DNA of 64,000 bases from Deltaproteobacteria bacterium (GTDB lineage: Bacteria; Myxococcota; Kuafuiibacteriia; Kuafuiibacteriales; Kuafuiibacteriaceae). Shown here one piece after another: positions 22,929 through 44,102 of this stretch; within the stretch, counting starts at the first letter, position 1, and every line of letters begins with the position of its first letter. Below the pieces are notes generated by a model. That model had not been told where the DNA came from and ran no database searches. It was given only the letters and a program-made list of their open reading frames with translations. The stretch lies in contig JAVJQW010000057.1 in NCBI GenBank assembly GCA_040218735.1, forward strand, positions 192,001 to 256,000. The letters are read 5' to 3'. The position numbers were made by a program, and so were the translations under genes.

Positions 22929-23450
22929 TCAGCCGACGCGGAACGCGCGGCGGCCGTTCTTGGGGCGGCCGCCCGGGTTCGTCGGGGTTGGATCCACCGT
23001 GATCGGCGGCAGCCCGAAGCCGTCCTCGCCGCGGCGCTCGGTGCCCGGTCGCTGCGACTCCTCGAAGCTCGCGGCGACCTCGGCCCAGGCGCCCTGCTGA
23101 AGCTGCTGCGCCGTGAAGGTCAGCGGCGGCGCTTCCTCGGGGGTGTGCGGCCCGTCGATGCGGACCGTCCCGTTGTTGGCCGCGCCGCCTCCGCCGCGTC
23201 GACCGCCCGAGAACGACTCCCAGTCCCCGCCGCGCTGGTCGCGGAGGGCCCCCTGCTGCGCGAGCAGAGCCTCCCGGCGCCTCAGCTCGTCGGCGACATC
23301 GGTGTGCTGCCGCGAGGGGTCGATCCCCTGATCGCCGATCTCGAGCTGCCGACCGGGGACGAGCCGGTCGAGGTGCTCCGCGCCGTTGAAGTCGACGCGG
23401 TTCGGCTGACCGGTGCTGACACCGGTCCCATGGACGTTGGGCAAAGACAT
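22929..23450 (-). CDS. Hypothetical, largely disordered protein (effector-like N-terminus)
   Basis: ATG 23450 gives MSLPNVHGTGVSTGQPNRV...; preceded by the sigma-28-like motif. Confidence 0.6.
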   Translation of the reverse strand: MSLPNVHGTGVSTGQPNRVDFNGAEHLDRLVPGRQLEIGDQGIDPSRQHTDVADELRRREALLAQQGALRDQRGGDWESFSGGRRGGGGAANNGTVRIDGPHTPEEAPPLTFTAQQLQQGAWAEVAASFEESQRPGTERRGEDGFGLPPITVDPTPTNPGGRPKNGRRAFRVG

Positions 23451-23464
23451 CCCGGGTCGACGCA

Positions 23465-23492
23465 TTATCGGTGCGACGACTCGGGTGTTGCG
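23465..23492 (-). promoter_or_regulatory. Putative sigma-28 (FliA/WhiG)-type promoter CGCAA-N15-ACCGATAA
   Basis: The -10 matches GCCGATAA at 7/8; same -35 and spacing as the copy at 38713-38740; 14 nt upstream of ATG 23450. Confidence 0.6.
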
Positions 23493-36015: not shown

Positions 36016-38262
36016 TCAGGCGGCGCGCGCGTCGGGTCCGTCGCCGAACGCAGCGGGGACCGCGTCGACTTCGCCCTCCAGCGTGTCGACGCCGAGGATC
36101 CGCAGATCCGCGCGATCGCCGAGCCCGAACAGCCCCTTGGGCGTCTCGTACGCCGTCGCCTCGTTGACGAGGCCGTACTGGCCGCCTTCGGTCTTCTGCA
36201 TCAGACCGGACGAGACGGAGATCTCGGCGGGGAACGCGTCGAGCTCCACCTTGAACCCACCTGGCGACACATCCACGACCGTGCCGGACATCGCTTCGCC
36301 GACGTGCGGCTCGAGGAGCATCGACCCGAGGATCGACGTGCACTGCGAAGCGATCGTCCCGTGCATCCGCGCCGCGCGTTCGTTGCACCGCGCGATGAAG
36401 TCGAGGTTGTCGTCGTCCTGGTGCGGAATGGGCGTGCCCTCGACGATCGCCGCGAGCACCCGCGCGGCGACGATGTCCGGGTAGCGACGCATCGGCGCGG
36501 TGAAGTGGAGGTAGTGCTTCAGCTTCAACCCGTGGTGCCCCGGCGAGTCGGGCGTGTAACTCGCCCGGACGTTCGTGCGCGTCGCCATGCGACGGATGCA
36601 CGCGGTCTTCGGATCGGTCGAATCCAGCGCCGCGAGGTAGTCCGACATCGCCTGGTCCTTCGGCCACGGGCGACCGAGCACCGCGACGCTCCGACGGAAC
36701 GCAGCGACCTTCTCCGGATCCGGCTCCGGGTGCGCGCGGTGGAGAGCCTTCACGTCCTCGGCCTCGAGCCGCGCCGCGACGGCGTGGTTCGTCATCAGCG
36801 AGATCTGTTCGTTGAAACGCTCGACCATCAGACGCCCGCGTGACTTCAGCTCGAACCCACACGGCGTCGCGTCGCTCGGGACGCCGCGCGACTCGGACGC
36901 CTGGCTGTCGACGACCTTCCGATCCTTGGCGCGATCGATCAGTGTCCCGCCGATCGTCTGGAGCAGCTCGAGCGAACGTGAGTACTCCTGGTTCGCGAGC
37001 GGCCCCGACTTGGTGTCCATGAACTCTTGGACCCCTTCGAAGTCGAGCTTCGCGCGCGCCTTGATCACGCCGCGCTCGAACTTCGAGTCGAGGAGCTTGC
37101 CCTGGTCGTCGAGCTCCATCGTCACGACGAACGCACGGCGCCGCTGGTTCGCGACCAGCGAGCACAGGTCCTCCGACAGCTCACGCGGGAGCATCGGGAT
37201 GGAGCGCCCCGGGAGGTACGCGGAGAGCGAACGTTTCACCGCTTCCTTGTCGAGCGCGCTCCCCTCCTTCACGTAGTACGCAGCGTCGGCGATCGCGTAG
37301 TGCACGACGACGCCCCCGCCCGGCCGCTCCTGCACACACACCGCCTGGTCGAGGTCGACGGTGTCCTTCCCGTCGATCGTCACGAACGGCAGCGCCTCGA
37401 AGCTCTTCCCGGTGATCTCTTCCTGCTGGAACGCCCGCACCTCGGCCATCGCCTCCTCGGGGTGTGTGAGGGACAGGCCATTGTCGGTGGCGACGGAGAG
37501 GAACCGCGCCCGCGCGCCGTCGGACGGTCCCAGCGTTTCGAGCACGTGACCGACGCAGTCCGGCTTACCGCGGTTCTGGACGTGGCAGACGATCGCCTGG
37601 CCCTCCAGCTGGGGTGCGCGCGCCGCCGCCGCATCATCGAGCGGAACGGTCTCGTAGGCACGGTTCGCGCCGATGCCTCGCGCGACCCACCGTCCGTCGA
37701 CCTTCGCGACCTCGCCCACGAACGCACGGCCGAAGTCCTCGCGGTCGGTGAGGATCCGCTGCTTCGTCTCTCCCGACGGCGTGGTCGTCGTCTCGATCTC
37801 GACCTCGGCGCCGTGGCGGAGGCCCCAGGTGTCCTCGAGCTCGAGCGGGAACGGCTGGATCTGTTTGTCGTGCGGACGGAAGAGCACGCGCTGCTTGCCG
37901 CGTTTGACGGAGCGATCGATCCGGCCGGAGATCGGCGGGTCGCCCCTGAGCGACGCCGGCGTCAGCGCGGCGATCGCCGGCATGCGCTGCACGCGCTGCA
38001 GCGCCGCGCGCACCGGGCCTTCGAACTGCGTCATCGCCTGCGCGATGCGGTCCTTGGTCAACAGCGCGCGTGTCGCGGCCGGGAATCGTTTGGTGAGTGG
38101 GGTTCGCTCGGGCGCCGCGTGCTGGCCGGTCCGGGTGAGGCCCTCTAACCCCGAGGTCCCCGACGACTCCGCCTGGCTGCGACGCACGGACTGGATGTCG
38201 ACGGTCGGCGTGGTGTCGATGACCTGCCGCCGGCCGAGCGGTCGACGCGGGATGGAGCTCAC
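36016..38262 (-). CDS. RNase II/RNase R (RNB) family exoribonuclease with a ~100-aa disordered N-terminal extension
   Basis: FVTIDG.DT.DLDQA, YAIAD, S.YLPG..IPMLP.ELS..LCSL, HHGL....Y.HFTAPMRRYPD, C-terminal S1-like domain. GTG 38262 overlaps the TGA of the upstream TPR gene. Confidence 0.88.
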   Translation of the reverse strand: MSSIPRRPLGRRQVIDTTPTVDIQSVRRSQAESSGTSGLEGLTRTGQHAAPERTPLTKRFPAATRALLTKDRIAQAMTQFEGPVRAALQRVQRMPAIAALTPASLRGDPPISGRIDRSVKRGKQRVLFRPHDKQIQPFPLELEDTWGLRHGAEVEIETTTTPSGETKQRILTDREDFGRAFVGEVAKVDGRWVARGIGANRAYETVPLDDAAAARAPQLEGQAIVCHVQNRGKPDCVGHVLETLGPSDGARARFLSVATDNGLSLTHPEEAMAEVRAFQQEEITGKSFEALPFVTIDGKDTVDLDQAVCVQERPGGGVVVHYAIADAAYYVKEGSALDKEAVKRSLSAYLPGRSIPMLPRELSEDLCSLVANQRRRAFVVTMELDDQGKLLDSKFERGVIKARAKLDFEGVQEFMDTKSGPLANQEYSRSLELLQTIGGTLIDRAKDRKVVDSQASESRGVPSDATPCGFELKSRGRLMVERFNEQISLMTNHAVAARLEAEDVKALHRAHPEPDPEKVAAFRRSVAVLGRPWPKDQAMSDYLAALDSTDPKTACIRRMATRTNVRASYTPDSPGHHGLKLKHYLHFTAPMRRYPDIVAARVLAAIVEGTPIPHQDDDNLDFIARCNERAARMHGTIASQCTSILGSMLLEPHVGEAMSGTVVDVSPGGFKVELDAFPAEISVSSGLMQKTEGGQYGLVNEATAYETPKGLFGLGDRADLRILGVDTLEGEVDAVPAAFGDGPDARAA

Positions 38263-38696
38263 TTGCGAGCCTCGAGCATCGACAACATGTCGAGAGCGTG
38301 CCGACGCGCGACGGAGGACTCGGTCAGCTCGACGAGCAACCACGACAGCAGCGACCGCGCGCGGTCCTCTTCGCCCGAGTCCATGTACAGACGCGCGAGC
38401 TCCAGGAGTGTGTGCGGGTCCCGTTCCTCCGCGGTGATGGCACGTTCGTACGCGTCACGCGCCTCGAGCGGTCGGTTGAGGCGGTCCAACGTGAGGCCGA
38501 GCATCGCGAGCGCGCGCGGGTGGTCGGACTCGAGCGCCAGCGCGGCCGTGAGCAACGCGTACGCGTCGTTGAAGGCGTGCGCGCGCAGAGAAGCGGAGGC
38601 GCACGCGATCAGGAGCTCCGGATCGAGCATGGGCTGCTCGCCCGTCACCGTGTCGAAGGACGGGCGTGGCGGCGTGGCTCCGGTGGCGAAGGGCAT
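38259..38696 (-). CDS. Small 3-TPR protein, SycD/LcrH (class II T3SS chaperone)-like
   Basis: About 145 aa; three TPRs with A..LL....ALE..HP.A...LG....L....EA..AY..A......DP..LL.LA..Y...GE...AR..L and a terminal A...L..L helix. Confidence 0.7.
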   Translation of the reverse strand: MPFATGATPPRPSFDTVTGEQPMLDPELLIACASASLRAHAFNDAYALLTAALALESDHPRALAMLGLTLDRLNRPLEARDAYERAITAEERDPHTLLELARLYMDSGEEDRARSLLSWLLVELTESSVARRHALDMLSMLEARK

Positions 38697-38712
38697 GGTG
38701 GACCCGACGTCG

Positions 38713-38740
38713 TTATCGGACGCCGCGTCCGCGGGTTGCG
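38713..38740 (-). promoter_or_regulatory. Putative sigma-28 (FliA/WhiG)-type promoter CGCAA-N15-TCCGATAA
   Basis: Same -35 and spacing as 23465-23492; 16 nt upstream of ATG 38696. Confidence 0.6.
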
Positions 38741-38781
38741 AGATCGGAGGTCGGTCAAAAGTCCGACCGCCGGGTCACAGA

Positions 38782-39150
38782 CTACAGGCCCAGTACCTTC
38801 GTAATCGCCTTCATCAGCAGGTCGGGGTTGAAGGGCTTCACCATCCACGCGGTCGCGCCGGCGGCCTTGCCCTCTTGGACCTTCGCCTTCGACGACTCGG
38901 TGGTGACCATGAAGATCGGGGTCTTCGCGTGTTTGTCGAGCTGGCGCACCTTCCCGATCATCTCGATGCCGTTCATCACCGGCATGTTCACGTCGACGAG
39001 CATCAGCGCGACGTCCTCGGACTGGGCCTTTTCGTAGCCCTGCTGTCCGTCCTGGGCTTCGACGACCTCGAAGCCCTTGGAGCGCAGGAACATCCCGGCT
39101 TGCTGGCGAATGGTGGCGGAGTCGTCCACGACGAGAATCTTGTGCGTCAT
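38782..39150 (-). CDS. cheY: Single-domain response regulator, CheY-like
   Basis: ILVVDDS, DVNMPVMNG, TTE, KPF; 122 aa. Confidence 0.9.
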   Translation of the reverse strand: MTHKILVVDDSATIRQQAGMFLRSKGFEVVEAQDGQQGYEKAQSEDVALMLVDVNMPVMNGIEMIGKVRQLDKHAKTPIFMVTTESSKAKVQEGKAAGATAWMVKPFNPDLLMKAITKVLGL

Positions 39151-39170
39151 CGTTGTTCCTTCTTGTTCCT

Positions 39171-40172
39171 CTACAGAAACATCATGTCGCCCACGGCGAC
39201 TTCGTCGTCGCCGTGTGCTTCAGGCTGATCGAGGGCCGGCTCACACCGGTCCTCGACGTAGGTTTGATCGAGCTTCGAAATCGCCTCGACGATGGCGGCC
39301 TTGAGCGGCCCATCTTCCGCGCCCTCGACCGCGCGGAGGACATCATCGACGAAGGCGGACACCTGCGTGACGTGCTCACCCGCGAGCTGCAGCGTCTGCT
39401 CTACGCGATCTTGGAACTGCAGCCGCTTCAGGACGTCGTAGCAGTGTCCCTGCACGCGGTCCGTTCGCGTCTGTGCGGAACCGACCGCCGAGGTGATCGC
39501 GCCGCTGGCACGGGTGTAGGAGCGCTCGAGGTCCGAGTTGCCATCGCGCAGCTGTCGCTGGCTCTGGCTGCAGGACTTCGTGACGACGCGGACCGACTTC
39601 ACCATCTCGGGGAGCCGCTCACACAGCGTTGCGACGAGGTTGTCCATCACGGCGGCCGACTCGGTCGAGCGCGCGGCGAGGGCCTTCATCTCCTCGGCCA
39701 ATGCGACGAGCGTCTCGCCGTCGGCGCGGTCGCGCGCCGACTCGACGCGAGCGTTGAACGAAAGGAGCCGCGCGCGCTTGCTCACGTCGCGCATCGTCGC
39801 CGCGAGCGGCGCGAGCTCCTGCGCACGGACGTCGATCTCGTCCGATTGATCGCGAATGTGAACCGACGAAGACGTGATGTCGCCGACGAGCGTCGTGACG
39901 TCTTCGAGCGCGCCACGGAGCGCCGCTACGACATCGCCGAAGCGCTCCTCACCCGCGGGCGCCGAGCCGGTGGTGGTCTCGAACTGTTCCGCGAGTCGCG
40001 CGAGCTCCGCGACCTGTCGCTCACCCTCCTCGAGGATCACGGCGAGGTGCTCCCCCGCCGCGAGGACCTCGCCCCGCGTGAGCTCGACGCAGCTCTCGAG
40101 CATCCCCGACAGCTCCGCGTTCTTCGCGGCCGCGTTGGTGCGGGCGCTGCGTACGCTGGCTCCGCTGTTCAT
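39171..40172 (-). CDS. Cytoplasmic MCP-like protein with degenerate signalling hairpin and CheZ-like C-terminal motif
   Basis: RLLSFNARVESAR...LAEEMKALA (degenerate MCP tip); LQFQDRVEQ (DxxxQ); C-terminal GDMMFL; no TM. Confidence 0.7.
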   Translation of the reverse strand: MNSGASVRSARTNAAAKNAELSGMLESCVELTRGEVLAAGEHLAVILEEGERQVAELARLAEQFETTTGSAPAGEERFGDVVAALRGALEDVTTLVGDITSSSVHIRDQSDEIDVRAQELAPLAATMRDVSKRARLLSFNARVESARDRADGETLVALAEEMKALAARSTESAAVMDNLVATLCERLPEMVKSVRVVTKSCSQSQRQLRDGNSDLERSYTRASGAITSAVGSAQTRTDRVQGHCYDVLKRLQFQDRVEQTLQLAGEHVTQVSAFVDDVLRAVEGAEDGPLKAAIVEAISKLDQTYVEDRCEPALDQPEAHGDDEVAVGDMMFL

Positions 40173-42298
40173 CCCTCCATCTCCATCGACTCACTCGCCG
40201 GGAACGAGATCGCGAACCGCGTGCCGACGCCGACGTCGGACTCGACCACGATCGACGCGCCGAGCTCGTCACAGACACTACGCAACGCGGCCATGCCGAC
40301 GCCGCGCCCCGAGGTCTCGGTGATTGTCGTTCGCGTCGACACCCCGTCGGAGAGCAGCGCGTCGCGCAGGTCCGAAGTCGTGTCCGCGGGGAGCCCGAGC
40401 GCTTGGGCCTTCTCGGCGACCGCGCCCCAGTCGATCCCGCGACCATCGTCCTCGATCTCGACGGTGCACACGCCGCCTTCGAGCCGTGTCGCGAGACGAA
40501 TGCGTCCCTTCGCCGGCTTCCCGGCGGCGACGCGCTCTTCGGGCGCCTCCAAGCCGTGGTCGACGGCGTTGCGAACGACGTGGGAGAACGCCGACCAGAA
40601 CGTCGACCACCGCTCGTGCGGGATGCGGACGTTGTTCGGCTCGATCTGCACGTCGATCGTGCCCTTGTCGAGGCGACGCCCGAGAGCCCGCGTCTGATCC
40701 GCGACCCGCTCCAGACGGACGGACGCACGGTCGTGCTGCCAGCGATCGAGCGAGTCGAGGATGACCTCGTAGCTCGCCCCCTCGCTGATGAGCTCGCGGA
40801 GCCGATCGTAGTCCTCCGGCTCGACCGCGAGCAGCTCGCGCCCCTCCGGAGCGAGGACCTTGAGACGCTGGGTGATGGACTCCCACCCGGCGACGAGGCG
40901 ATCCCGACCGGCCACGTCGAGGACGTCACAGGTCTCGTCGATCACGTCCTCGAGCTCGTGACAGAGCTTCGCGACGGTGTGGATCCCGAACAGCGCGCAG
41001 TTGCCCTTCAGCGTGTGGAGCGCGCGCTTCATGAGCACCATGTCGTCCCCGGAAACCACGGACTCGACGAGCGACGTCGCCTCGTCGAAGAACTCCATGA
41101 AGCCGTCGCGGTCGACCATGAGGCGCTGGAACATCGCGAGGAAGTCGCGCTGCTCCGCCTCGGCGCGCTCGCGTTCGACCTGCGCGGTGATGTCCGAGAC
41201 AATCACGAGCAGCTTCTCGACCTCGTCGTCGGTTCCGATGGGGCGGTACTCGACGGAGAGCGAGCGACCGTTGGCCTCGAGACGCTCCGGCATCTGCGCC
41301 AGGGTCACGTCCGTCGGCATGATCCCGTCGTGGAGCGCTTCCCAGCCGAGCTCGAACCAGTCGGCGAACGTCCCGTCGTGTTCGCGGATCTGCTCGTCGA
41401 AACGAACGCCGGATCGCGGCGCTCCGAACCACGCCGCGTAGCGCGCGGAGCACTCTTCGCTCGGCGTGCCGTCGGCCTCGACCGTCACGATCGCCTGACC
41501 GACGTTGTCCATGACCAGCCGCAGCGCGCGGTTGCGAACCGCCAGCGCCTGCGTGCGCTCTTCGACCATCGACTCGAGGTTCGAACGGTGGGCTTCCAGC
41601 TCCTGGTCCCGTCGTTCGATGCCAGAGAGCATCGCGTTGAACGCCTCGGTGAGGACGCCGAGCTCGTCATCGCTCTTCTTTTCGACGCGGATCGAGTAGT
41701 CAGAGCTGTCGCGAACCCGGGTCGCGCTGCTCGCGAGCGCCTCGACCGGCGTGGAGATGACGCTGTGCAAACGGAGCGCCGCCAGCATCGCGAAGAGCAG
41801 CGCGCCCATGAGCACCGCGATGGCGATACGCAGGAACTGCTGCGTTCGCGCCGCGATGTCCGAGGTGGACAGCTCGACGACCAACGTTCCGACGCGCTCC
41901 CCGTCCTTGGCGATCGGTCGTACGATGGTGAGCGCGTGCGCGGAGTAGTGCGCGCCCTCTCGAGCGTCCGCCGGCGACACGACGTCGGCGTCGTCGCCTT
42001 CCTTGAACCAACCCGCGAGGCGCTCGCCGCCCTCCTGCGAGAAGATCCCAGCCCGAACGGCGGTGGGCTCGCTCCCCAGCGTCTCGAGCACGTACTTGGC
42101 GGACTCGGCATCACCGAACGCGGTCGGCCCGTAGGCGCTCCCCGCGATCGCGTCGGCCAGCACGGTCATCGTGACCTTCTTCGCCTCGGCGTAGCTCTTG
42201 CGGTCGTACCAGACGAACGCCGCGCACGCGGCGATCAGCGCCAGCGTGCACACGCCGGCGACCAGCCCGATCAACTTCCCTTTGATGTTGAGCCTCAT
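40169..42298 (-). CDS. Membrane sensor kinase: TM-CHASE8-like-TM-HAMP-PAS-Hpt-CheA-type HATPase (no CheW domain)
   Basis: Two TMs; DELGVL..AFN.ML (HAMP); RALHTLKG (Hpt); HVVRNAVDHGLE, DDGRGID and SGRGVGM (CheA-class boxes). ATG 42298 overlaps the upstream stop. Confidence 0.85.
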   Translation of the reverse strand: MRLNIKGKLIGLVAGVCTLALIAACAAFVWYDRKSYAEAKKVTMTVLADAIAGSAYGPTAFGDAESAKYVLETLGSEPTAVRAGIFSQEGGERLAGWFKEGDDADVVSPADAREGAHYSAHALTIVRPIAKDGERVGTLVVELSTSDIAARTQQFLRIAIAVLMGALLFAMLAALRLHSVISTPVEALASSATRVRDSSDYSIRVEKKSDDELGVLTEAFNAMLSGIERRDQELEAHRSNLESMVEERTQALAVRNRALRLVMDNVGQAIVTVEADGTPSEECSARYAAWFGAPRSGVRFDEQIREHDGTFADWFELGWEALHDGIMPTDVTLAQMPERLEANGRSLSVEYRPIGTDDEVEKLLVIVSDITAQVERERAEAEQRDFLAMFQRLMVDRDGFMEFFDEATSLVESVVSGDDMVLMKRALHTLKGNCALFGIHTVAKLCHELEDVIDETCDVLDVAGRDRLVAGWESITQRLKVLAPEGRELLAVEPEDYDRLRELISEGASYEVILDSLDRWQHDRASVRLERVADQTRALGRRLDKGTIDVQIEPNNVRIPHERWSTFWSAFSHVVRNAVDHGLEAPEERVAAGKPAKGRIRLATRLEGGVCTVEIEDDGRGIDWGAVAEKAQALGLPADTTSDLRDALLSDGVSTRTTITETSGRGVGMAALRSVCDELGASIVVESDVGVGTRFAISFPASESMEMEG

Positions 42299-42747
42299 GG
42301 CAACTTCACCACCTTCACTCCAGCCAGGTCCTGACCTTCGACCTCGGAGGCGAGCGCGAAGGAGATCGCACCCGGGTTCTTCTTCAAGAGCTCCACGACG
42401 CGCGTGATCGTGTCGGCGCTCTGGGGCTTCACGCCCTGGCCAGCGAGCTGCCGGCTCGTCCAGTACGCCTCGTAGCGCGCGCCGGTCATCTGAACGACGG
42501 GCTCGTAGAATGCGTTGCCCGCGTCCGTCTTCGCACCGCGCACCACGAGCTTCACCGGCACGACGCCGTGCCAGAAGGCGGTGTTGCCGAGGAACATCGA
42601 CACGACTTTCCCGCGCGGGATCTTCTTCGTCGGGTTGCGCTTGTTCAGCAGCAACACGACCTCGTCCGCGTGCGCGGTGTCGGGCGCCGCCGTGGCGGCC
42701 ATCCCGAACAGCAACGAAGCGATGAGGCAGCGACCCAGAGCATTCAT
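42295..42747 (-). CDS. Small periplasmic binding-protein-like (PstS-type fold) protein
   Basis: Signal peptide (AHA); VV..N..NP...I....V..MFLG....W, YW......G....P, V......PGAISF. Confidence 0.7.
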   Translation of the reverse strand: MNALGRCLIASLLFGMAATAAPDTAHADEVVLLLNKRNPTKKIPRGKVVSMFLGNTAFWHGVVPVKLVVRGAKTDAGNAFYEPVVQMTGARYEAYWTSRQLAGQGVKPQSADTITRVVELLKKNPGAISFALASEVEGQDLAGVKVVKLP

Positions 42748-44102
42748 CGCGGGAGCTCCCACAGGTACGAGAGCGACAGACGAATTTCGGGGTAGATGAC
42801 CGACTCACCGTTGAACTGTTGGATGTGCGCGCTGCCGTCGACCTTGAAGGCGACCTGCGGCACGGGCCGTACGACGGCACCCGCGGTGACCTTCCAGAAC
42901 TGGCCGTCGTCGGTGATGCCGGCTTCGGCGTCGCCGCCGAGGTCCTTGGAGGCGACGGTCTCGGGGTTCTTGTAGAAGTCGGCCTGTGCGTAGGGGATCA
43001 GCGCGAAGCCGCTCTCGAACGCCAGCTCGTAGCCCGCGCGGATGTAGAAGGTCTGTACCGCGTAGCTCGCCTCGGCGTTGACCCCCTGCATCGGGTCGCC
43101 GTTGACGAAGAACCGCTCGAGCTGCCGCTGGTTGAGGTCACCGTCGGCGAGCGCGAGCGTCGACTCGGCGTTGCGTCGGGCGTCGTGGTTCGCCTGCCAG
43201 TACGCGGCCTGCACGATGACGCCGGACATCTGAAGCTGCCCGTACCCTCCGAACACGACGTACCGATCGCGGTCCATCCAGTTGACGACGCCGCCGCGGG
43301 GCGAGCCGTCGCCCACGTCGCGCGAAGGGGTCGCGTCGCCGCCGGTCCAGTAGAAGGAGGTCCCCAGCGTGAACATTCCGCCGCCGATCAGGCGAAGGTC
43401 CGCGCCCACCGGGAAGGAGCGGTCGGCGCGCTCGTCGTTGCCGGTCGCGACGGAGTAACGGAGCGCGTACCCGTTCGACATCGCCGCGGTGCCGTGGAGC
43501 ATCAGGTTCGTGGTCCGCGTGAGCATGAGGTGGTCTTTGTCGAACAGCTCGGGAGGCTCGATGCCGATGAACGTCGGCACCGCGTCGAGGATCTCGTTGT
43601 AGAGGCCGAACCGTCGGTAGGTCTTGCCGGCGCGGACGACCAAGAGATTGTCGAGCAGGGGCGCTTCGACCCAGGCGTTGCGAACCGCGATCGCCTCGTC
43701 GCCCGTGACACCACCGGAGCCCGGCGCCGCGAGGTTCACGAAGAAGCGGTACTTGCCGTAGATCGTGCCCTGCACCATCGCGTGCAGGTTGAGGACGTCG
43801 AACTCGTACGGGTTGGACTCGAAGACCGTGTCGCCGTTTCCGTCGACGCCGGCCGGCGTGTCCGCGACCTGCTCGAAGTACGAGTCGATGTAGCCGTAGA
43901 GGCGCGCTTCGAAGATCGGCGTCTCCTCGGCCTCGAAGTCGGAGAGGTCACCCCAGCCGGCGGCCTCCTCCTCCATCGCCTCGGCGGCAGAGGACGTGTC
44001 TGATTGGGCCCAGGCGGACGCGGAGCACGTCAGCCAGGGCGCCAGTAGTGCGGCGGCTGCGAGTCCGATGTGTCGGACGCGACTCGTGACTAGGGGAGAC
44101 AT
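42744..44102 (-). CDS. Outer-membrane porin-like beta-barrel protein
   Basis: Signal peptide (ASAWA); LYGYID, AWVE, RAGK...FGLYNE, V.FKVD, terminal aromatic strand; ATGA overlap with the next gene. Confidence 0.7.
   Translation of the reverse strand: MSPLVTSRVRHIGLAAAALLAPWLTCSASAWAQSDTSSAAEAMEEEAAGWGDLSDFEAEETPIFEARLYGYIDSYFEQVADTPAGVDGNGDTVFESNPYEFDVLNLHAMVQGTIYGKYRFFVNLAAPGSGGVTGDEAIAVRNAWVEAPLLDNLLVVRAGKTYRRFGLYNEILDAVPTFIGIEPPELFDKDHLMLTRTTNLMLHGTAAMSNGYALRYSVATGNDERADRSFPVGADLRLIGGGMFTLGTSFYWTGGDATPSRDVGDGSPRGGVVNWMDRDRYVVFGGYGQLQMSGVIVQAAYWQANHDARRNAESTLALADGDLNQRQLERFFVNGDPMQGVNAEASYAVQTFYIRAGYELAFESGFALIPYAQADFYKNPETVASKDLGGDAEAGITDDGQFWKVTAGAVVRPVPQVAFKVDGSAHIQQFNGESVIYPEIRLSLSYLWELPR

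Follow-up and report, generated by a model that had tools for sequence, protein, structure and literature searches.

A conserved pairing of a TPR protein with an RNase R/II-family exoribonuclease, and the sigma-28-type promoter class that precedes it, in a member of the Kuafuiibacteriaceae

RNase R and RNase II belong to the RNB exoribonucleases, a group treated as solitary cytoplasmic housekeeping enzymes. Four aspartates of RNase II are conserved, D201, D207, D209 and D210, according to the available part of one study (PMC3293843), and loss of D209 abolishes activity, as stated in the accessible text of that study and of another (PMC8943300). Regulation of Escherichia coli RNase II by acetylation, through Pka and CobB, is described in the part of a further paper that is available (PMC4797298). 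Here we describe an RNB nuclease gene from a stretch of 64,000 nucleotides (nt), the window, of Deltaproteobacteria bacterium, a member of the Kuafuiibacteriaceae within the Myxococcota [GenBank: GCA_040218735.1, contig JAVJQW010000057.1, positions 192,001 to 256,000]. It overlaps a preceding gene for a small tetratricopeptide repeat (TPR) protein. The two genes form a conserved TPR-RNB module, the TPR protein has a predicted grip on residues 51-97 of the nuclease, and in this genus the module is wired into the regulon of a probable sigma-28 paralogue, a regulon that goes together with a non-flagellar type III secretion system.

Comparable arrangements are known from secretion systems. The HrpL regulon of Pseudomonas syringae, with its hrp box and its shc-hop chaperone-effector operons, is an effector regulon under an alternative sigma factor. 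The sigma-28 factor FliA has a consensus of TAAA at -35, a spacer of about 15 nt and GCCGATAA at -10. In type III secretion systems (T3SS), effectors are attended by class I chaperones, which are not TPR proteins, and translocon proteins by class II TPR chaperones, as the available portion of a 2026 review has it (PMC13466201). In Myxococcus a 'needleless' T3SS-like basal body has been implicated in prey killing, to go by the accessible part of the report (PMC12075869), so being linked to secretion need not mean being injected.

An earlier note on this DNA had proposed a candidate secreted-ribonuclease module made up of a sigma-28-like promoter, a SycD-like TPR chaperone and an RNase II/R with an effector-like N-terminus. 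We know of no RNB enzyme that is a T3SS effector, and a literature search on the RNB domain with TPR proteins and T3SS gave no work naming RNB among the matches listed. Is the nuclease an enzyme that works inside the cell under the control of its partner? Or is it a cargo, kept by a chaperone until export?

A TPR gene and an RNB nuclease gene kept together

The gene layout given in the earlier note holds. The two open reading frames (ORFs; Table 1) overlap by 4 nt at GTGA, which supplies both the stop codon of the TPR gene and the GTG start from which the nuclease is counted. High G+C content at third codon positions (GC3) passes from the TPR frame (0.8–1.0) to the nuclease frame (0.88–0.92) exactly at this junction, in a window of 69% G+C, so both ORFs are coding, the N-terminal extension of the nuclease included.

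The DNA context of the pair can be seen at five loci: the window, the genomes G001 and G010, and two metagenome contigs. In 5/5 of these the nuclease has the N-terminal region and is preceded, with the same 4-nt overlap, by a TPR gene of 141–150 codons. The flanking genes differ and nuclease identity ranges over 35–75%. The TPR proteins are orthologous (window against G010, 37% identity, E 2e-17). When a TPR profile was run against six-frame translations it matched only 5/83 RNB loci, some of the other 78 ending close to the gene; confined to these five, the TPR partner follows the subfamily-specific N-terminal region. The genes and their conservation as a pair are observations made by computation.

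Full-length relatives of the nuclease are present in two further genomes among 41 relatives, one of the same genus (75% identity) and one of another (38%), and in 3/401 genomes sampled across the phylum (E ≤1e-110). A scan of genome contigs returned the G001 contig only. Residues 1-290 are matched by three proteins in a set of 5.8 billion, and about a dozen representatives (468–1347 bits) stand apart from the bulk of 24,027 RNB matches in a library of 1.84 billion proteins.

The nuclease is a member of the RNB superfamily, its PF00773 match (Table 1) standing against a cut-off of 29.3 bits. Like RNase R (E. coli 5xgu, Bacillus subtilis 8cdu) and RNase II, it has the domain order CSD1-CSD2-RNB-S1, where CSD stands for cold-shock domain, and these two structures are its best solved matches (E 7e-47 and 4.8e-44). 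The AlphaFold2 model contains two cold-shock-like barrels followed by the RNB and S1 domains, which makes the RNA-handling architecture complete, with an S1 match that is weak and under its cut-off in Pfam. The RNase R equivalog model TIGR02063 gives 309.9 bits against a cut-off of 597.85 and covers model positions 80-706 only, position 80 aligning to nuclease residue 125 and the alignment running from there to the end (NCBIfam). Unlike RNase R, the protein has a disordered tail and a short helical segment in place of the N-terminal helix-turn-helix. RNase R of E. coli ends in a long basic tail; this nuclease ends about ten residues past the S1 region. It also differs from RNase R and RNase II in having a dedicated TPR partner while a true RNase R is encoded elsewhere in the genome, on contig C8 (673.5 bits, above the same cut-off). 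With a shorter gene on C52 this makes three RNB genes in the assembly (11.6 Mb, 70 contigs, 96% complete).

Three of the four active-site aspartates are kept (D297, D303 and D305), as is the RRY motif, and the counterpart of RNase II D209 is among the residues retained. The fourth position is a glutamine, Q306, unlike in RNase R and RNase II. The motif DLDQA is invariant in 16/16 aligned subfamily sequences and D.DQA is present in 104/156 collected proteins, so the glutamine is a trait of a large uncharacterised RNB clade and not a sign of decay. No solved structure from the D.DQA clade was found. Judged from the alignment, the substitution alone would not decide whether the enzyme is active.

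What kind of TPR protein is the partner? Pfam places several generic TPR families on it. The AlphaFold2 model has a disordered stretch at residues 1-21 and then seven helices, forming three TPRs and a capping helix, and in being small, acidic and built of three TPRs plus a cap the protein is like SycD/LcrH, PcrH and IpgC. The label 'SycD-like' did not survive comparison with family models, however. The SycD/LcrH model TIGR02552 gives 25.9 bits against a cut-off of 104.8, SctY (NF052415) 33.3 against 70, and SscB (NF011886) 20.5 against 146. The genome's own T3SS-cluster TPR proteins, by contrast, reach 86–92 bits, and BLASTP finds no similarity between the window protein and the TPR proteins encoded at the sigma locus and in the T3SS cluster described below (E 0.61 and 2.2). 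In Foldseek searches of the PDB the TM-score is 0.72 to PcrH (2xcb) and 0.65–0.73 to SycD, and designed consensus TPRs and PEX5 rank equal or higher; the three-and-a-half-TPR fold is therefore present but does not discriminate. An ESM Atlas search returned only generic TPR neighbours. Given the TIGR02552 score and the generic fold, membership of the SycD/LcrH class is not supported. The protein is predicted to sit on an N-proximal segment of the adjacently encoded protein, as in that class. Its client is a soluble enzyme and not a translocator, its gene is outside the T3SS cluster (which is on contig C23), and none of the P/VxLxxP anchors named in the available part of the review (PMC13466201) was seen by eye.

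The N-terminus of the nuclease was described in the earlier note as effector-like and without a Sec, Tat or lipoprotein signal. The predicted local distance difference test score (pLDDT) of the AlphaFold2 model falls below 50 at residues 1-67 and 96-106, and short helices lie at 62-66, 70-79 and 83-93. Ser, Thr, Pro, Gly, Gln and Asn make up 50% of residues 1-50, and residues 1-110 contain no signal-peptide-like hydrophobic stretch (highest 15-residue Kyte-Doolittle mean 0.85). The N-terminal tail is 24–58 residues long in the aligned members of the subfamily.

When the full nuclease and the TPR protein were modelled together, the model supported binding of the TPR protein to the nuclease N-terminal region. 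The interaction prediction score from aligned errors (ipSAE) was 0.72, 0.72 and 0.74, the best of three controls was 0.00, the runs share at least 55% of their contacts, and the partner has a pLDDT of 78. The input alignments held 15 rows for the nuclease and 5 for the TPR protein. The mark applied is passed by 116/157 solved complexes and by 2/215 mismatched pairs, figures that give only a rough guide since our own alignments were used. The confident interface is predicted at nuclease residues 51-97, which would leave residues 1-50 free, and the pairs of lowest predicted error are nuclease residues 83-91 with TPR residues 32-51. Other modelled contacts on the nuclease are at 121, 136-139, 515-525, 562-565, 666-668 and 684-702, the last two in the S1 domain. 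As the modelled contacts reach folded parts they fit a lasting holoenzyme. The predicted succession of a disordered stretch, residues 1-67, and partner contacts at 51-97 would suit an effector and a non-secreted complex alike.

The genes upstream of the pair vary. In the two metagenome loci a Sir2 gene lies 62 and 11 nt upstream (SIR2 116.2 and 81.6 bits; L050:1333-2217 and L051:53-730), and in G010 a GNAT-type gene is directly upstream (27–28 bits; L016:3-1028). The window and G001 have neither at the pair. Having Sir2 or GNAT genes in 3/5 loci recalls, in neighbourhood only, the acetylation control of E. coli RNase II at Lys501 by Pka and CobB, as far as the available text describes it (PMC4797298), and these neighbours would point to a cytoplasmic, regulated enzyme. 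Unlike in E. coli RNase II, the Lys501 equivalent is not a lysine by our reading of the alignment. No mobile-element genes were seen in the flanks examined at the five loci, and PADLOC-DB has no family matching the TPR protein or the nuclease (E ≤0.01).

The promoter class, its probable sigma factor and type III secretion genes

The CCGATAA motif reported before the pair is present, as the downstream half of a bipartite element (Table 1). In the window the bare heptamer occurs at chance level (2 found, 1.54 expected). Over the whole genome the pattern CAAC-N-CCGATA occurs 37 times with a spacer of 15 nt and 31 times with 16, and 1–7 times at every other spacer from 8 to 23. These 68 sites have the consensus GCAAC-N15/16-CCGATAA. 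Most are followed by a start codon after a few to about 30 nt; the chosen ORF starts within 31 nt at 50/68 sites, the choice of ORF being naive and biased to early starts. In G001 the element GCAAC and CCGATAAC are kept while the 15-nt spacer between them has diverged, and the ATG again follows after 17 nt. The motif GCAAC-N15/16-CCGATAA is absent upstream of the pair in G010 and in both metagenome loci.

The earlier note had called this promoter sigma-28-like. That description stands for the -10 element CCGATAA and for the spacer, which at 15–16 nt for the class (15 nt here) is like that of FliA class 3 promoters (TAAA-N15-GCCGATAA). It fails for the -35 element, which is GCAAC and not TAAA, and the likely sigma factor is linked to the T3SS, not to the flagellum. 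The GCAAC element was found by inspection and is specific to the family. Canonical sigma-28 promoters were sought and rejected: TAAA-N14-16-GCCGATA occurs only once in the genome, and not at flagellin genes. A score-based sigma-28 scan of 30 flagellin upstream regions did not set them apart from shuffled sequences (means 8.0 and 7.79). A relaxed form, CAA[CG]-N15-CCGAT[AT], is found upstream of flagellin in 4/30 regions of the family, where 0.02 would be expected.

Three further features of this promoter sequence were seen. The window has a second copy of the motif at 23465-23490 (CCGATAA at 23465-23471); the ORF that directly follows it, with about 178 codons, has no Pfam family (22929-23490, minus strand). 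The exact 16-nt stretch at 38719-38734, within the spacer in front of the TPR gene, has its only other copy in the 11.6 Mb some 120 nt upstream of a flagellin gene (C41 near 353308); since G001 does not conserve the spacer, we treat this repeat as unexplained. A short inverted repeat with a TTGACCGACC block at 38740-38775 (minus strand) is kept in G001 (L015, about 795-850) though the upstream genes differ, and could be an operator or an upstream promoter element.

A gene on contig C45 encodes a sigma factor of the FliA/WhiG family (158.8 bits, under the subfamily cut-off of 189.6). Its operon (C45:32405-35617, L222) begins with a gene for a 192-residue TPR protein, which has weak SctY, LcrH, CdsG and HrpB1 matches, and a 145-codon gene of unassigned family, whose product could be an anti-sigma factor; the sigma gene follows. 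Motif sites lie on both sides of the operon. The flagellar FliA is encoded separately on C59, beside flhA and fliI, and the motif class follows the second paralogue. From these sites and from the co-occurrence described below, the promoter before the TPR gene is probably read by the T3SS-linked sigma-28 paralogue on C45. The gene just downstream of this operon gives a weak match to SctI, the inner rod protein (24.6 bits against 32.4).

Both a flagellum and a non-flagellar T3SS are encoded in the genome. In the T3SS cluster on C23 the order is SctU, a SycD-like gene, a motif site, a 407-codon gene of unassigned family, a second SycD-like gene and SctV. SctV scores 844 bits against a cut-off of 692 and the SycD-like genes 86.3 and 91.9 bits. 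The sole non-flagellar T3SS ATPase is also on C23, 35 kb from the SctV cluster. For an SctC-type secretin the best match in the genome, 121 bits, is below the cut-off of 238, and an outer-membrane conduit is therefore not evident. The genome has six full-length genes for FHIPEP (FlhA/SctV) and a partial one (C23, C59, C41, C70, C38, C9, C16) but only two for T3SS/flagellar ATPases (E ≤1e-60; C23, C59), such that several export-gate paralogues seem to have no ATPase nearby.

Across 20 genomes of the family the motif co-occurs with this sigma factor of FliA/WhiG type, which is not the flagellar one, and with a single type of non-flagellar SctV, for which a threshold of at least 832 bits was set after the gap down to 732 bits had been seen. 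This phyletic link was observed by computation, as was the promoter class itself. Both the C45-type sigma factor and this SctV occur in 13/20 genomes. In genus g5 four genomes have neither and no copies of the motif, while the fifth has both and nine copies; flagellin was found in three of those four. Among the rows listed, the motif lies 1–2.5 kb upstream of this SctV on the same strand in five genomes (G000, which is the genome of the window, G003, G004, G006 and G011), and in at least seven it directly adjoins the sigma gene at its 3' end. The picture is ambiguous for three genomes, namely G001 (75% complete), G016 (940 contigs) and G013. In G003 both the sigma factor and the SctV type are present, yet there are only 2 copies of the motif, with 2 in a reversed-pattern control. 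Sigma factor and SctV type are likewise present in G010, where no motif precedes the pair.

Which genes stand behind the other promoters? Among 63 regulon ORFs (naive calls, GC3 at least 0.8; Pfam E ≤1e-4), 44 are without a Pfam family. Domains found in the remaining 19 include calpain-like Peptidase_C2, NlpC/P60, an esterase, PLD-like, matrixin and Peptidase_C39-like domains, along with DUF3626, a proprotein-convertase P domain, PPC and a circularly permuted ATP-grasp. Also among the 19 are three proteins that are likely not secreted: an SSF transporter, an Fpg-like glycosylase and a sigma-54 activator. A hydrophobic N-terminus is found in 7/68 regulon ORFs. The profile resembles an effector-rich set, though not a pure one. 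A common N-terminal peptide motif of the regulon proteins and the nuclease was sought and rejected as not significant (4/64, against 1.95 in shuffles with a maximum of 6). The Fpg/Nei-like DNA glycosylase (C55:188870-189850), one of three in the genome, is behind a consensus motif site and is another spare nucleic-acid enzyme.

Coordinates and neighbouring genes

Table 1. Features of the TPR-RNB locus, in positions of the 64,000-nt window
Feature	Positions	Strand	Evidence and remarks
Bipartite promoter GCAAC-N15-CCGATAA	38713..38739	-	GCAAC 38735-38739, CCGATAA 38713-38719; 17 nt to TPR start codon
TPR gene, 145 residues, acidic, isoelectric point 4.9	38259..38696	-	Pfam TPR families; AlphaFold2 pLDDT 86.3; orthologues in 5 loci
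RNase R/II-family exoribonuclease paralogue, 748 residues	36016..38262	-	PF00773 257.3 bits; TIGR02063 309.9 bits; AlphaFold2 pLDDT 84.3
Codons 1-50, polar, mildly basic, predicted disordered tail	38113..38262	-	pLDDT 27–31; tail in 15/15 aligned members
Codons 51-97, conserved helical segment, predicted binding site of the TPR protein	37972..38112	-	Complex-model interface and lowest-error contacts
Codons 111-246, two cold-shock-like beta-barrels, CSD1 and CSD2	37525..37932	-	RNase R model alignment; strand pattern in AlphaFold2 model
Codons 287-607, RNB catalytic domain	36442..37404	-	Pfam RNB span
Active-site motif D297...D303-L-D305-Q306-A	37342-37374	-	Gln at fourth conserved Asp
Codons 652-729, S1-like RNA-binding domain	36076..36309	-	PF00575 20.4 bits, cut-off 22

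By Pfam, the immediate neighbours are a CheY-like gene upstream of the pair and a GST-like gene downstream of the nuclease. The upstream gene is part of a chemosensory-like set at 38782-42880 (minus strand) that consists of a CHASE8-HAMP-Hpt-HATPase kinase, a protein with an MCP signalling domain and the CheY-like receiver. This set is not kept beside the pair in other genomes. Between 35800 and 39400 a scan found no sigma-70 promoter and one terminator-like site, at 39186-39200, which is unrelated to the pair.

Inside the cell or exported?

The reading that we favour, tentatively and at a little less than an even chance, is that of a cytoplasmic RNase gated by its TPR partner. The two genes would make up a single operon with coupled translation and encode an enzyme of two subunits, a non-housekeeping 3'-5' exoribonuclease of RNase R/II type and a small acidic TPR protein that clamps nuclease residues ~51-97, just behind the disordered tail. 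The TPR protein, which rests on S1 and CSD1 in the model, would gate or direct the access of RNA. In this genus the operon would be read from the sigma-28-type promoter GCAAC-N15-CCGATAA, as part of a regulon of some 68 promoters, and the complex would act inside the cell as a TPR-controlled RNase switched on with the secretion programme. The binding is a prediction of the complex model; we infer the gating and the cytoplasmic site of action. This reading is based on the conservation of the pair, the predicted binding, the full RNA-handling architecture, the Sir2 and GNAT neighbours, the loci without the motif and the regulon members that are likely not secreted. Several points weigh against it. 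The links of the operon to the T3SS regulon fit export equally well or better, for the promoter class is also found inside the T3SS cluster, and the 44/63 regulon ORFs without a Pfam family, with the calpain-like, PLD, matrixin and esterase domains, resemble an effector set. A free polar tail at 1-50, a binding segment at 51-97 and an acidic partner gene placed first would, by analogy, be the layout of a T3SS chaperone and its effector. The Sir2 and GNAT neighbours represent no more than about two independent events, and at the position of the acetylated K501 of E. coli RNase II the nuclease has an arginine (motif read by eye). Modelled contacts with folded domains are not evidence of gating.

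Export of the nuclease by the non-flagellar T3SS is possible, though we consider it rather doubtful. Its export signal would be in residues 1-50, and the TPR protein would be a dedicated chaperone bound at 51-97 that may, by lying on the S1/CSD side, keep the enzyme harmless until it reaches prey or host and degrades RNA there. None of the four findings that the earlier note had said would refute its proposal was made: there is a separate housekeeping RNase R, relatives keep both the N-terminal region and the TPR neighbour, flagellar and T3SS genes are present, and the TPR protein is predicted to bind the N-terminal region. The separate RNase R and the rarity of the pair in the phylum are consistent with export, as are the predicted binding and the succession of tail and binding segment. 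Much of the promoter evidence is as well: a class defined by its spacer, its co-occurrence with the sigma factor and SctV in the family, its sites upstream of SctV, at the 3' end of the sigma gene and, in G000, between two SycD-like genes near SctU and SctV, and a regulon with many ORFs without a Pfam family, few hydrophobic N-termini and domains that include NlpC/P60. Like the HrpL regulon, this is a fixed-spacer bipartite promoter before many lineage-specific genes and inside the T3SS cluster, with a small partner gene before the cargo; unlike HrpL, which is an extracytoplasmic function (ECF) sigma factor, the factor here is of the FliA/WhiG family, the motif is GCAAC-N15/16-CCGATAA, and the system is known from sequence alone. 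Against this, the TPR protein falls short of the SycD/LcrH and SctY models and is unrelated by BLASTP to the TPR proteins encoded in the T3SS and sigma loci of the same genome, and TPR chaperones normally serve translocators, in so far as the review's accessible part covers them (PMC13466201). The best SctC-type secretin match stays well under its cut-off, G010 has the T3SS and the sigma factor but no motif at the pair, and two other loci are Sir2 operons.

That the pair is a toxin with its antidote, or a defence module, appears unlikely to us. The RNase would then be a growth-arresting toxin, held by the TPR antidote and set free by a trigger such as phage infection or stress. A partner gene placed first with a 4-nt overlap, the predicted contacts on RNA-binding domains, a patchy distribution and the Sir2 genes beside two loci agree with this. 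The Sir2 proteins, however, look by eye like ordinary CobB-type deacetylases with a zinc ribbon, neither protein of the pair has a PADLOC match, the flanks examined have no mobile-element genes, and the promoter wiring in this genus would go unexplained. We consider it very improbable that the two proteins do not interact at all, with an ordinary extra RNase R/II paralogue merely sharing an operon with a TPR gene behind an incidental promoter match. Neither TPR proteins nor 4-nt overlaps are unusual, the complex score expresses the confidence of a model only, and the bare heptamer is at chance in the window. Yet the pair persists in 5/5 loci down to ~35% nuclease identity while its neighbours change, the TPR family is absent from the 78 other RNB loci (some cut close to the gene), and the complex-model controls are at 0.00. 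Both halves of the promoter are kept in G001 around a diverged spacer, and the excess of the motif across the genome is specific to the spacer.

RNB exoribonucleases have been regarded as enzymes that work alone, and here is a small, conserved subfamily whose members have a disordered tail and a TPR partner that looks obligate. Should the partner gate the enzyme, this would be a new control of processive RNA decay. If the enzyme is exported, it would be a new class of secreted toxin. It might then prove, which we think possible but on balance doubtful, the first T3SS effector of the RNase II/R family, with a TPR protein that acts as export chaperone and inhibitor, a sigma factor derived from FliA/WhiG that directs an effector regulon of some 68 promoters, and the RNA of prey or host as its target for destruction; the same motif would then list dozens of further candidate effectors in this bacterial family. 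The promoter motif is useful under either reading, since it ties a large regulon to a non-flagellar T3SS and a flagellar-type sigma paralogue and yields a list of candidate genes linked to secretion in a group of bacteria with large genomes about which little is known.

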